64,000 bases of DNA from a virus: positions 31,827-95,826 of IMG/VR virus record IMGVR_UViG_3300020731_000012. One strand, 5' to 3'. Shown one piece after another: positions 59,902 through 64,000 of the stretch. Position 1 is the stretch's first letter. The number at the start of each line of letters is the position of its first letter. A model generated the notes under the pieces. It was given only the letters and a program-made list of their open reading frames with translations, searched no databases and was not told the DNA's origin. The position numbers and the translations under genes were made by a program.

Positions 59902-60438
59902 ATGCGATTAAGAGAACTATTCCAAGAAGGCCTTGTTAAACAACTGGCACAAGATCTCCTGCACTTGTCAGATCAAGAGTTTGTCAAACTCTACGGCAGA
60001 AGCAAAGCTGAGTTTAAACCAGCGGCAGCTCCTGTCAAATCAGCACAGTCTGCAACAGCTAGCGCATTTGATCTCAAACGTGTGCCCAAAGGTTACCCAC
60101 AACCTCCGTGGGATTTGAATACTGTAAAGAGCTATTGGCAGTTAATGGGCTATCGAGGTGATCCCTATGCGGCCTATATGAAAGGTTATCGCGGCCCCAA
60201 GCTGACTGAGCCTAGTGAAGCTGTAGGGGACAATGTACTAGCTCCATGGGGCGATAAAGGAGCTAGACATCACCAAATGGAAGCGGGTAACGCACCTAAA
60301 TACTATATAATACCCAATGGTGAAGACTCACGTGTAGTACACATTGAATCAGGCACTATACCCTACGCAGGCACTCTAGCTGAGTGTCAACTGTGGATTA
60401 GAGCACATGATCCACAGGGCACTTATAACTTTGAATAA
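59902..60438 (+). CDS. hypothetical protein
   Basis: MRLRELFQE start, 4 nt after TAAATA. Confidence 0.6.
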   Translation: MRLRELFQEGLVKQLAQDLLHLSDQEFVKLYGRSKAEFKPAAAPVKSAQSATASAFDLKRVPKGYPQPPWDLNTVKSYWQLMGYRGDPYAAYMKGYRGPKLTEPSEAVGDNVLAPWGDKGARHHQMEAGNAPKYYIIPNGEDSRVVHIESGTIPYAGTLAECQLWIRAHDPQGTYNFE

Positions 60439-60486
60439 GATCCCAAATGGGTCTAGCAAGATAAAAAAATAGTCTGCAAAAAAAAT

Positions 60487-60705
60487 TTACGAAGTACTTA
60501 GGGGAAACCCAGTGGCCAAATCACGGTCAAGATCTACTGGGGGACATGAGTCTGCGTACCATAGATAAAACTCTGTATATAAGTCTTCTGGCACCCAAAA
60601 GCGTGTGCGATTTAGGTGTACTTCAAACTGGATATCGTTGTGAAATATCCACAGAAATACTTCTCTTGAGTGTGGATGCATTGTGAGTATATAGTGCTGT
60701 CTCAT
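60487..60705 (-). CDS. small hypothetical protein
   Basis: MRQHYILT...EVHLNRTRFWVP; start uncertain (ORF extends to 60798). Confidence 0.5.
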   Translation of the reverse strand: MRQHYILTMHPHSREVFLWIFHNDIQFEVHLNRTRFWVPEDLYTEFYLWYADSCPPVDLDRDLATGFPLSTS

Positions 60706-60807
60706 TGATCTAGCCCGAGAAAATCCTGTAGTAGAATGCCTAGCCAACAGCATAACAAGCTGGAAATGGGAGTTAGTATACAGGTAAGGACGATCCAAAA
60801 TAGTTGT

Positions 60808-60972
60808 TCAAGCACGATGAGTTTCCAATTGATATTCTAGCTTACTTAACAATCGTCCAACGCCATTGTGTGTAGGATGTATATAGTAGGTTGATAACCA
60901 TACTAGACGGCCACTATCCACTCGAGTGGGCCACCATGCAAAACAAGGATGATATGTATAGACGCAGGACAT
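60808..60972 (-). CDS. small hypothetical protein
   Basis: FAWWPTRVDSGRLVWLSTY motif; GGCTATATACTGTAT before ATG 60972. Confidence 0.45.
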   Translation of the reverse strand: MSCVYTYHPCFAWWPTRVDSGRLVWLSTYYIHPTHNGVGRLLSKLEYQLETHRA

Positions 60973-61169
60973 ATACAGTATATAGCCCAAATGGGTCTTT
61001 TGCAGATAAAAAACGAGTCGCGTAAAAAATTATAAAGAAGTACTTAAACTTTTGAGGTGGTGTTTTTACCTCGGTACCCATGCGCTGTTGCGCTTGCACT
61101 ATTATTGTGCATGTATATACCCCTCACCCCTCGCCCTCATCACTGTCTCATGCCCCCGATGTCTCGACC

Positions 61170-61310
61170 AAAAAAATCCCCTGACCAACCGGGAGCGAAT
61201 CGGAATTATGAGTCAGGGGACACACTGCCGAACAACCTAGTGGGAGCGAATCACGTCAGCTGTTCTCCTGTAGGGGCTTATTCTCGTAGTAGTATGCCCC
61301 TACCCTACAG
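61170..61310 (-). ncRNA. candidate structured small RNA with two AUUCGCUCC loops and an intrinsic terminator
   Basis: Three consecutive hairpins; 11-bp repeat GGGAGCGAATC (+ strand) at 61191 and 61242, each in a loop; last stem followed by 7 T on the minus strand. Confidence 0.6.
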
Positions 61311-61316
61311 TATACG

Positions 61317-62210
61317 CTAGCGAGTGCCGCGCATACATGTAACTTCTGCTACAGCTTGCCACTTGTCGGGCATGCTGGCTGCCAAGTCTGCTACCTTGAG
61401 CACAGTACGCAAGCTCAGCTCACGCATGCGATGCTTGTTGGCATCTACGAACTCAACTACTTCTAGCTTGCGCTCATCACTAAGCTCGTATGAGTCCAAC
61501 ATGCCATGCTCTGTTACTACCTGCTTGATGCGCAAGACCTTCTCACGCTCTGTGTCGATAGTCAAGTCTAAGTAGTGGCAACGGCTTTCTAGTGCTTCTA
61601 AGTGATCGCGTAGTTTGGCACTCTTGACGTGATCGAACTTGATGTTGGTAATAAAGATAGCACCACCCTTGAACTCAAATGAGTTGGGCACACCTTCACT
61701 ACGTAGCAAGCGACTGTCAGTGTTCCAATGGATCATACGCTTCTTTGATGTATCCAGGGCTGCCTTTAGGATGTTCAAACTTAGATCATCTAACAGTACA
61801 GAGTCGCAGTCATCAAACACTAGGATTGACTTCTTGTCTGAGTACTCATAGAGCTTTGAGTACAGGCCAATGGCACTCATAGCACCTTTGACTACTTCGT
61901 ACTTCTTCAGCTTCTTGTCGTCTGCGATATCAGCAAACACATCATGCTTTGAGAGTACTTTCTCTACACCAAAGGATTTACCTACGCCTGGAGGGCCTGT
62001 TACGATCATAGCTCGCACATCACCACGCTTGACAGCACGGGTCATGTCATCTAAGATCTCAAAGCGATCGCGGAGTCTATTGAGAATTGACTCATCACTC
62101 TCGTGTGCAATGTCTTTCTTTACGGGTTCTACTTCAAGGCTTGATACCTTGGCTTTTGGTTGTTTCTGTAAGGCCATCATCATCTTTGAACTGTTAACTA
62201 CTGATACCAT
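61317..62210 (-). CDS. AAA+-type P-loop ATPase
   Basis: GPPGVGKS Walker A, ILVFDDCD Walker B, IFITN sensor, ALESR arginine finger. Confidence 0.85.
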   Translation of the reverse strand: MVSVVNSSKMMMALQKQPKAKVSSLEVEPVKKDIAHESDESILNRLRDRFEILDDMTRAVKRGDVRAMIVTGPPGVGKSFGVEKVLSKHDVFADIADDKKLKKYEVVKGAMSAIGLYSKLYEYSDKKSILVFDDCDSVLLDDLSLNILKAALDTSKKRMIHWNTDSRLLRSEGVPNSFEFKGGAIFITNIKFDHVKSAKLRDHLEALESRCHYLDLTIDTEREKVLRIKQVVTEHGMLDSYELSDERKLEVVEFVDANKHRMRELSLRTVLKVADLAASMPDKWQAVAEVTCMRGTR

Positions 62211-62242
62211 TGTCGCTCCTTATACGCTGTTGGAAAGTATTA

Positions 62243-62271
62243 ATTATAAGGGGTTTCCCCCTTGATGTCAA
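62243..62271 (-). promoter_or_regulatory. early sigma70 promoter
   Basis: TTGACA-N17-TATAAT. Confidence 0.9.
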
Positions 62272-62591
62272 TCCATTCGGCTGCCGCCGTAGGCCTTGAG
62301 TCCCAACTTGGTCAAGTAGTCAGCATAGGCATAGGCCCCTGCTTCTTTGACTGAAATGCTCTGTGTAGGAATGCCTGCTGGATCCCACATGCTCAAGCAC
62401 TTTGGTTTGTAGTCCTTGCGGAAACCTGCGGCAATCAACTCTTTTGCCTGGGCTGAGTTTGTGCGATCTACATAGACCTCAACCCAACCAAAACCACAAG
62501 CATCACGCTCGCCTACCTTGGCGTACATGTCACGACCTGCTTGCTCTGCTACTCGCTTACCTGCACGGATCAATTCTGCTGTTACTAACAT
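62268..62591 (-). CDS. conserved early hypothetical protein
   Basis: ACGFGWV...QS...KEAGA.AYA..L...G......SRMD pattern; GGAGCGAA RBS. Confidence 0.75.
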   Translation of the reverse strand: MLVTAELIRAGKRVAEQAGRDMYAKVGERDACGFGWVEVYVDRTNSAQAKELIAAGFRKDYKPKCLSMWDPAGIPTQSISVKEAGAYAYADYLTKLGLKAYGGSRMD

Positions 62592-62623
62592 AAGTTCGCT
62601 CCTTTTGTTAACGTTAAAACAAT

Positions 62624-62652
62624 ATTATATTATCTAAGTGTGGGATTGTCAA
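62624..62652 (-). promoter_or_regulatory. early sigma70 promoter
   Basis: TTGACA-N17-TATAAT. Confidence 0.9.
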
Positions 62653-62857
62653 CCAGTTTACGCATGGTTTCTTCAGTGCCAGAATTGGCATATCTTGCGC
62701 CCAGGGCTAGGAATGCCAAGCCGATCAAAGTGAATGCAAATAGATATAGACCGTCGTATGTAAGTAGATCCACTGACTGCTCGACTCCGCCTACTGAGCC
62801 TAGCAACATGATCAGGCCTGCGTTGAGGAATAAGACTGCTTTTTGCTGTGGTGACAT
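62630..62857 (-). CDS. small two-TM membrane protein
   Basis: Two hydrophobic segments around GSVGGVE; GGAGCGAA RBS. Confidence 0.7.
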   Translation of the reverse strand: MSPQQKAVLFLNAGLIMLLGSVGGVEQSVDLLTYDGLYLFAFTLIGLAFLALGARYANSGTEETMRKLVDNPTLR

Positions 62858-62890
62858 AAGTTTCGCTCCTTAAGTGTTTAATGTCTAATA

Positions 62891-62919
62891 ATTATAGCGC
62901 CTAGTGGGCTGGCTGTCAA
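62891..62919 (-). promoter_or_regulatory. early sigma70 promoter
   Basis: TTGACA-N17-TATAAT. Confidence 0.9.
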
Positions 62920-62922
62920 GCC

Positions 62923-63285
62923 CTAAATGAACTCGCAGACAAAGCCATCTGGCTCTACTTCTGCTAAGGGCAAGAGCATGACTGCAGGGTATGCGATGCT
63001 TCCTTCATACTCCAGCTGGCTCTTTTCGAACGGAGTCATGAATGAGTCCTCTACGATGCCGTAGCCTGTGATATACTGACGGCTACCAACATCATCCCAC
63101 TCAATGCGGGTACGGAGCACCTGGATCAACTCTTCGATGTGCTCGGCGCTAGGCTCTTGGGCACCCAACTGATAGAAATAGTCCTCACCACCTTTGAACT
63201 TCCAATGCTGGGGGCAAGCACCTAGACCGTCCCAATCGTGGGCACCGTAGTTTTCCATGTATTGCGTAACGATATGTAATTTCAT
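62923..63285 (-). CDS. conserved early hypothetical protein
   Basis: MKLHIVTQYMENYGAHDWDG...WKFKGG; GGAGCGA RBS fixes start at 63285. Confidence 0.75.
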   Translation of the reverse strand: MKLHIVTQYMENYGAHDWDGLGACPQHWKFKGGEDYFYQLGAQEPSAEHIEELIQVLRTRIEWDDVGSRQYITGYGIVEDSFMTPFEKSQLEYEGSIAYPAVMLLPLAEVEPDGFVCEFI

Positions 63286-63316
63286 TGCTCGCTCCAATTA
63301 ATTAACTTATACAGCT

Positions 63317-63345
63317 ATTATACGGCCTTTTGGCTTACTTGTCAA
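63317..63345 (-). promoter_or_regulatory. early sigma70 promoter
   Basis: TTGACA-N17-TATAAT. Confidence 0.9.
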
Positions 63346-63655
63346 GCCTGACGATCATACCCTGTGGCGTACTAACAACACTGTAGCCGTTAGCGGTAAA
63401 CAGGTCGAGGACTTCTCTAGCCAACTGATCTTTACGGCGAGCACCTTCTGCTTTGACTGCTATGAACTTCTTGCGATAGTTGATATAGAGCTTAGAGTAG
63501 GTAAAGGCTGTGTCGATTAGATCACGCACTGATAACGCTCTACGAATCTGCTCTTGTGAGTAGTGGCTCTTGTTGTTTGAATTGCGACGATCAGCATCAA
63601 TAGCCGCCGCGAATGCAAAGATGCCTGCTTCTTTAGTATCTAATTCTTGTAACAT
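63335..63655 (-). CDS. early hypothetical protein
   Basis: 106 aa, GGAGCGAA RBS, own promoter. Confidence 0.7.
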   Translation of the reverse strand: MLQELDTKEAGIFAFAAAIDADRRNSNNKSHYSQEQIRRALSVRDLIDTAFTYSKLYINYRKKFIAVKAEGARRKDQLAREVLDLFTANGYSVVSTPQGMIVRLDK

Positions 63656-63685
63656 GGTTCGCTCCTTTTATCTAACTATAAGTCT

Positions 63686-63714
63686 ATTATACGGCCTTTT
63701 GGCTCAGTTGTCAA
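63686..63714 (-). promoter_or_regulatory. early sigma70 promoter
   Basis: TTGACA-N17-TATAAT; shares 21-bp CTATTATACGGCCTTTTGGCT with the 63317 promoter. Confidence 0.9.
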
Positions 63715-63716
63715 CC

Positions 63717-63935
63717 TTAGAGTTTAATTAAATCAGTTGAACCGATGCTAGCCACTGTAGGGTCGATGTTAGTGAAGCTGGCCTTTACAGGGCGAACTTG
63801 AGCACGAACAGTGCCTAGCTTCTCAACTACCCCAATAACAAGACTGCCAGCATTGTGCCAGCTGACCATTGCTACACGATCGCCTACCTTGATCTCTTTA
63901 CCTTGCATGTCTTTGAGTTGAGTTGCTGTTTTCAT
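63717..63935 (-). CDS. small SH3-like early protein
   Basis: KDMQGKEIKVGDRVA pattern; GGAGCGAA RBS. Confidence 0.65.
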   Translation of the reverse strand: MKTATQLKDMQGKEIKVGDRVAMVSWHNAGSLVIGVVEKLGTVRAQVRPVKASFTNIDPTVASIGSTDLIKL

Positions 63936-63969
63936 AAGTTTCGCTCCTTATTTGTTAGTGTATGTGTAT

Positions 63970-63998
63970 ATTATAGCAAGTTCTAGCCAAACCGTCAA
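63970..63998 (-). promoter_or_regulatory. early sigma70 promoter
   Basis: TTGACG-N17-TATAAT. Confidence 0.85.
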
Positions 63999-64000
63999 CC

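Follow-up and report, generated by a model that had tools for sequence, protein, structure and literature searches.

In phage T4, RegA is a translational repressor and RegB is an endoribonuclease, and early messages are inactivated by RegB cutting at the GGAG of early Shine-Dalgarno (SD) sequences. Ribosome sites can also be closed by RNA; a duplex over the SD normally blocks 30S binding, as established for many sRNAs. In Staphylococcus aureus, C-rich (UCCC) loops in the 3' domain of RNAIII and in the Rsa sRNAs, that of the terminator hairpin included, pair with several SD regions. Anti-SD RNAs that control whole regulons are known from bacteria; to our knowledge, none serves a phage as its own switch from early to late genes, and none works with a dedicated tag that spares other genes. 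The described RNAs closest in architecture to the locus reported here are the Cuckoo RNAs of Alphaproteobacteria (RSs0680a-d/CcsR, alpha-r14, SmelA075, and others), which have two to four hairpins with variable stems and the loop CCUCCUCCC and are located behind a small ORF with a terminator downstream (PMC4615179). The closest phage case is the c4 RNA of phages P1 and P7, in which complementarity displayed in a loop binds around the ribosome-binding site (RBS) and blocks translation (PMC12197685). In this study, a stretch of 64,000 nucleotides from a virus (IMG/VR record IMGVR_UViG_3300020731_000012; hereafter, the window) was analyzed for a hairpin element whose loops are complementary to a tag in the ribosome sites of early genes.

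The element resembles the Cuckoo RNAs in its adjacent hairpins with variable stems (one to three motif hairpins here), its one anti-SD-like loop, its place behind an ORF, and its terminator. It differs in the loop, which is AUUCGCUCC, or UGCCCUC in a sister clade, rather than the general anti-SD CCUCCUCCC. Besides the SD, this loop matches a private extension on the 3' side of the SD that only early genes of the phage itself carry; the setting is an uncultured freshwater jumbo phage of virulent type rather than a bacterial chromosome. An Rfam scan of positions 60000-64000 at E <= 1 gave no match. Homology to c4 RNA was rejected on this ground, as was membership in the Cuckoo/CcsR/alpha-r14 group, the defining loop of which is also absent. 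Like c4, the element would be a phage-encoded RNA from the same transcription unit as its putative targets; whereas c4 is upstream of a single target, icd/ant, and serves temperate immunity, the element is at the 3' end and faces 6 to ~20 early genes. RNAIII and the Rsa sRNAs bind the generic SD of host genes, with no private tag and no phage context. RegB and RegA of T4 have the job proposed here for the element, class-wide early shut-off via ribosome-binding regions, and are proteins rather than RNA. For an anti-SD base-pairing RNA, the private class-wide tag and the phage setting are new here. A preliminary description of this DNA, made from the sequence alone, had named no phage precedent for such a design, and our literature search on the motif and on phage anti-SD sRNAs likewise found no published description of either motif or design.

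Structure, strand, and conservation of the hairpin element

The element is located directly behind the ATPase gene (61317-62210, minus strand), between its stop codon and the convergent plus-strand genes. The product of this last early gene is an AAA ATPase (phrog_1250) akin to T4 nrdC.10. Hairpin 1 (61270-61303, minus strand) is formed by the stems GTAGGGGC (61270-61277) and GCCCCTAC (61296-61303) and has no conserved loop. Hairpin 2 (GAACA...TGTTC; 61230-61265, minus strand) carries the loop GUG-AUUCGCUCC-CAC, with an 11-mer at 61242-61252. Hairpin 3 (61177-61220, minus strand; stem TCCCCTGAC.../...GTCAGGGGA), which was delimited by the fold, covariance model R1, and alignment A2, carries the tip CCG-AUUCGCUCC-CGG, with the 11-mer at 61191-61201 and a conserved 5' bulge, RUAANY. 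The loops of hairpins 2 and 3 thus both present GAUUCGCUCCC on the minus strand, and a search of both strands of the 64 kb found the 11-mer GGGAGCGAATC at 61191 and 61242 only. Hairpin 3 is G+C-rich and is followed by a U7 tract (61170-61176, minus strand; A7 on the plus strand), as in an intrinsic (Rho-independent) terminator; a simple terminator scan passed over it, the loop limit of the scan being 8 nt. All stem, repeat, and U7 coordinates in the preliminary description agreed with the sequence. The window had no megablast match among GenBank phages.

The hexamer TATACT (61309-61314), previously offered as a promoter of the element's own, is present; the promoter scan was negative there and the hexamer is not conserved in relatives, and this part of the preliminary description was abandoned. 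The promoter and terminator scan found no promoter before the element and no terminator between the six early genes, so nested early transcripts should share this 3' end. We infer from the lack of a promoter that the element is co-transcribed with the ATPase ORF, and it would be more simply explained as the common 3' end of nested early transcripts than as an RNA with its own promoter. Just past the terminator (61100-61165), the early strand has runs of G (GGGGG, GGG, GGGG, and GGGG) and the plus strand is C-rich; a similar GGGGTCGGGG...TATA stretch is kept at the same place in relatives. This stretch could form a G-quadruplex or serve as a C-rich Rho-loading site for convergent late transcripts.

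In the minimum free energy (MFE) fold of the minus strand, all three hairpins formed and AUUCGCUCC was unpaired in loops 2 and 3, as the preliminary description had anticipated. The fold energy is ordinary (MFE z = -0.99); hence, thermodynamics alone proves nothing, and the support comes from covariation across relatives. A closing helix between the region after the stop codon and the region before the terminator, seen in the MFE fold of the window, was rejected because it is not general in relatives. In the plus-strand fold, hairpin 2 was not formed because its G-U pairs turn into A-C; the two G-U pairs make this hairpin specific to the minus strand.

Relatives were fetched from IMG/VR with the ATPase as the anchor. 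Hundreds of freshwater jumbo-phage contigs of up to 383 kb were obtained. The loop is unchanged in ~95 distinct relatives, each of them a freshwater jumbo phage that has not been cultured. The number of UCGCUCC copies behind the ATPase, counted in 94 distinct regions, was two in 75, three in 2, one in 6, and none in 11. Among the loop-bearing relatives, ATPase identity drops to ~67% and the stems are fully replaced with compensatory changes. A covariance model was used to re-align 63 distinct terminal hairpins. The outer stem was 94% paired with 204 double-change cells, a score that was reached in 0 of 500 shuffles and was not approached in any slid register, and the tip CCG-AUUCGCUCC-CGG was invariant in all 63. 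In the upstream copy, the loop is kept while the closing pairs covary (GUG/CAC, CUG/CAG, UUG/CAA, GCG/CGC, and CCG/CGG). A T run follows the terminal hairpin on its 3' side in nearly all relatives and is conserved among the 63 re-aligned hairpins. Hairpin 1 is lineage-specific, and unrelated hairpins take its place in relatives. By these comparisons, the element is a genuine RNA structure of the minus strand and is strongly conserved.

In more distant lineages, whose ATPase is 67-72% identical, one or more genes are inserted behind the ATPase, and the CCGAUUCGCUCCCGG hairpin is retained on the same strand, a few hundred bases to ~3 kb downstream. Extra copies of the element occur between early genes in some genomes. 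The 11-mer has just two to three copies in the near-complete genomes of 345-383 kb, and a reversed control pattern had 0. In L102, L115, L123, L125, and L130, the ATPase stop TGA opens the first anti-tag hairpin (TGATTCGCTCCC), and the RNA element overlaps the coding end of the ATPase. In Pseudomonas phage PA5oct, the nearest cultured relative by ATPase (47% identity), the genes behind the ATPase are arranged differently and the hairpin element is absent.

The strand bears on a reading in which RNA of the opposite (plus) strand presents two GGA loops (GGGAGCGAAUC) as a decoy for a CsrA/RsmA-like protein; the CsrA recognition element is GGA in hairpin loops. In the plus-strand fold, the hairpin at 61177-61220 does have GGAGCGA in its loop, but hairpin 2 fails on that strand, the U tract is 3' of the hairpin on the minus strand only, and the element sits between same-strand early genes in several lineages. 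Just two sites are present, and Rfam gave no CsrB/RsmZ-type match. A CsrB/RsmZ-type sponge was rejected for the number of sites, the missing plus-strand hairpin, the wrong polarity of the U tract, and the Rfam result, and we regard the decoy as most improbable. As far as sequence can tell, the G-U pairs and the U tract assign the structure to the early (minus) strand, on which the preliminary description had also placed it; the genomic context agrees.

Early promoters and the ribosome-site tag

Six small early genes fill the right end of the window (62210-64000, minus strand). Each has a consensus sigma-70 promoter, TTGACA-N17-TATAAT (five score 12/12 and one 11/12), and a short, G-poor leader. 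The tag GGAGCGA was counted in front of all six starts (62210, 62591, 62857, 63285, 63655, and 63935), and its longer form GGAGCGAA in front of four, as previously claimed. For the ATPase gene, the tag is GGAGCGA at 62213-62219 (promoter 62271-62243), and GGAGCGA is also the form at 63289-63295 for the gene at 62923-63285 (promoter 63345-63317). The form GGAGCGAA is located at 62595-62602 for the gene at 62268-62591 (promoter 62652-62624), at 62862-62869 for the gene at 62630-62857 (promoter 62919-62891), at 63658-63665 for the gene at 63335-63655 (promoter 63714-63686), and at 63940-63947 for the gene at 63717-63935 (promoter 63998-63970); all are on the minus strand.

Sites of the other gene class differ, again as the preliminary description had it. 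GGAGCG has no copy elsewhere on the plus strand, and none of the 57 plus-strand gene starts carries it; these starts have GGAGAA, GAGGA, or no site. When the loop was paired against the initiation regions of the window, a ranking that had been proposed earlier and was done here within the window, the six early regions took ranks 1-6 of 71, with duplex energies of -13.1 to -14.3 kcal/mol; the seventh region had -10.6 kcal/mol, and the median was -5.5 kcal/mol. The CGA(A) extension is unable to pair with the 3' tail of 16S rRNA; therefore, the tag is not simply a stronger SD. The stretch GGGAGCGAA (tags 62595-63947) presumably equals a conserved 16S rRNA helix 24 stretch of many bacteria. Pairing of the loops with nascent host 16S rRNA is possible in principle, and we consider the match a coincidence. 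Two candidate late promoters, TATAAATA and ATAAATAC, were rejected, neither being enriched in the window.

Some features of the early cluster were noted in passing. Within the 17-nt spacer of the ATPase promoter (62243-62271, minus strand) is a perfect hairpin, GGGGGAAACCCC; the relative L150 has GGGGCAACCCC at this place. The promoters at 63317-63345 and 63686-63714 (minus strand) have an identical stretch, GCCAAAAGGCCGTATAATAG, which suggests that promoter cassettes were recently duplicated or converted. The first early gene (63717-63935, minus strand) encodes a protein of 72 aa with a weak, sub-threshold match to Pfam Phage_ProQ_C_like (E = 0.0047). Its PHROG matches are to families of unknown function, its only neighbors in the Atlas are DUF7205 phage proteins, and a search against solved structures was uninformative. 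A role of the protein as an RNA chaperone beside the anti-tag RNA would be interesting and is unsupported. In a complete 383 kb relative, G004 (L085), the early cluster has a T-arm-like GGTTCGAATCC at ~95.95-96.0 kb, just upstream of an early promoter, possibly as part of a tRNA gene; no tRNA is present in the window.

To see how far the tag extends, 938 distinct promoter-leader units were collected from relatives, and in 772 of them GGAG is no more than 16 nt from the ATG. In these 772 early leaders, the positions after GGAG are C in 87%, G in 76%, A in 66%, and A in 59%, and CGA as a whole is present in only ~56% of the GGAG-bearing early leaders. Variants with a displaced SD, e.g. GGAGAGCGA and AAGGAGAGCGA, still retain GAGCGA. 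In the complete 383 kb relative, early promoter units are found at 87.0-97.7 kb, 8 of the 9 tag-bearing units of the entire genome are within 11 kb just upstream of the element, and the double hairpin (99,088-99,168) closes the cluster. The 7-nt loop core is constant throughout the freshwater clade, so there is nothing there to co-vary. Loop variants outside the core, AAUCGCUCC and UAGUCGCUCC (flanks AAUCG and UAGUCG), occur with no matching changes in the tag, and pairing beyond the core of 7-8 nt was rejected for this reason.

Joint change of tag and loop among relatives

Variation in the core was found in a sister clade. Its GAGGGC-type loci were first met by a promoter-plus-tag pattern, and the clade was then re-fetched by ATPase homology alone to avoid selection on the tag. 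Behind the homologous ATPase of this clade are one to three hairpins, the last of which is the terminator, with loops (G/A)UGCCCUC; the early leaders carry GAGGGCA(A) tags, and the closing stems vary freely. Among 184 distinct ATPases, 89 loci combine UCGCUCC with GAGCGA, 18 combine GCCCUC with GAGGGC, and 0 are mixed. On the ATPase tree, tag and loop each switch once, on the same branch; the switch is therefore one evolutionary event, and the independent-pairs test has n = 1, which leaves formal contrast statistics without power. This event rewrote dozens of ribosome sites plus the loops with complementarity preserved. By our estimate, the odds that a new loop core of 6-7 nt would match by chance are about one in thousands, and the joint switch, as read from sequence comparison, argues for functional complementarity. 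The preliminary description had proposed to test whether the loop co-varies with the early RBS consensus of each phage. The joint switch in the sister clade agrees with such co-variation; the flanking loop variants that lack tag changes do not.

Tag and element also disappear together. In the lineage of L165/G006, the ATPase is surrounded by 16 early promoters and the ribosome site is GGAGAAAC; the early cluster (~220-234 kb of a 259 kb contig) has uniform leaders that end in ACGGAGAAACAAA-ATG. These leaders lack the GAGCGA tag, the 259 kb contain no exact copy of the 11-mer, and no anti-tag hairpin was found in the early cluster; the lineage appears to have lost the whole system of tag and hairpins. 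The loss is seen in one or two neighboring lineages, and a presence/absence test on the tree is underpowered, with two independent pairs. Within the GAGGGC clade, L358 (= L269) has mixed early sites, five of them GAGGGC and several of GGAGC type including one GGAGCGAC; the loops behind its ATPase are GCCCUC only. This member may be a mosaic or represent an intermediate state.

The hairpins might instead be a site for an RNA-binding protein of phage or host, such as a termination or antitermination factor or a chaperone of ProQ/Hfq type, with the RBS match secondary. The terminal copy, with its invariant CCG/CGG closing stem and conserved RUAANY bulge, could mark such a site, the second copy being located in the terminator tip itself, and the first early gene has the weak ProQ_C-like match mentioned above. 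However, a protein site would not explain why 7-8 nt are complementary to early RBSs in two sequence versions, and in the sister clade the loop has become complementary to that clade's new tag while the closing stems vary freely. We therefore consider a protein site quite unlikely.

A still simpler account would have an ordinary intrinsic terminator with stabilizing 3' hairpins and no regulation, the loop being kept for folding or termination efficiency. The transcription unit does end there, at a G+C stem followed by U7-8, and terminator hairpins are universal at convergent gene ends. It is not normal, however, for loops to stay invariant amid complete stem turnover; moreover, the upstream copy is no terminator, and the complementarity to the tag and the joint switch are left unaccounted for. 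Little credence is given to this account.

The joint switch would fit a DNA-level motif too, since complementarity on one strand amounts to the same duplex motif inverted, and one DNA-binding protein could read it at the early leaders and, inverted, at the cluster end. The fairly narrow distance between the -10 box and the tag (16-24 nt) would suit such a protein. However, covarying inverted repeats with G-U pairs flank every inverted copy and a U tract follows, which is the signature of RNA, and the tag holds SD spacing (2-5 nt to the ATG). A DNA-level motif is very improbable on this evidence.

Proposed action on early genes

Tag and loop very probably pair to control early protein synthesis, a view well supported by the comparison of relatives. 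Pairing between the loops and the early ribosome sites is the reading we prefer, and we think it probable, on the sequence evidence, that this pairing damps early translation. In the proposed course of events, the six promoters would fire into one strand, and the nested transcripts would all end at 61177-61220, each with both hairpins. The sequence AUUCGCUCC would be offered in a 9-nt loop, the core UCGCUCC of which could pair with GGAGCGA, the latter understood as the SD GGAG with a private 3' extension, CGA(A). Pairing would hide the ribosome site and lower the translation, and possibly the stability, of the early class; late genes with GGAGAA sites would be spared. The anti-tag RNA would be fed by every early promoter and would be more structured than the messages. 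Because of these two properties, it would accumulate and exert a delayed negative feedback that ends the early phase. As a 3' UTR, it might act in cis or in trans without being released; alternatively, it might act once excised as an sRNA of ~110-150 nt. As expected of a 3'UTR-derived sRNA, the element shares its terminator with the ATPase mRNA, and its seed is complementary to the initiation regions of the targets. Pairing leaves the invariant CCG/CGG and the RUAA bulge of the terminal copy unexplained, and these parts may contact a chaperone or nuclease.

The pairing could be real and have a positive effect. The loops would protect the GGAG site against a nuclease or hold the 5' and 3' ends of early messages together, and these messages would be stabilized or enhanced. 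Tags and anti-tags are on the same transcripts, which favors contact in cis, and a protective duplex is conceivable given the cleavage by T4 RegB at GGAG. The RegA and RegB Pfam families had no match in four near-complete relatives, the control genomes being equally silent. Against protection, an SD duplex normally blocks 30S binding, and general protection is unlikely with two loops per transcript for many tags (up to six or more). A positive effect is judged a live, if rather unlikely, alternative, and more likely than any of the other rival readings.

If damping of early translation by the loops is the correct reading, a wider one may be considered, at which we arrive more tentatively and with slightly less than even confidence. 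The tag would be a phage-private address code, in which an SD extension of 3-4 nt marks a temporal class, and an RNA made by that class reads the mark and closes the class. At least two mutually exclusive codes would then exist, GGAGCGAA/UUCGCUCC and GAGGGCA/UGCCCUC, a point held with the same reserve. Such a code, if true, would be rewritable across dozens of genes at once. The two natural pairs of tag and loop are a ready-made design for compensatory mutations (tag GAGGGCAA, loops UUGCCCUC) and may serve as orthogonal parts in the control of translation. The system would account for the odd ribosome site that lake and marine phages of a large, abundant group have in common in their early genes. 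If true, it would mean that a giant phage of virulent type times a whole gene class by one small RNA and a private ribosome-site tag.
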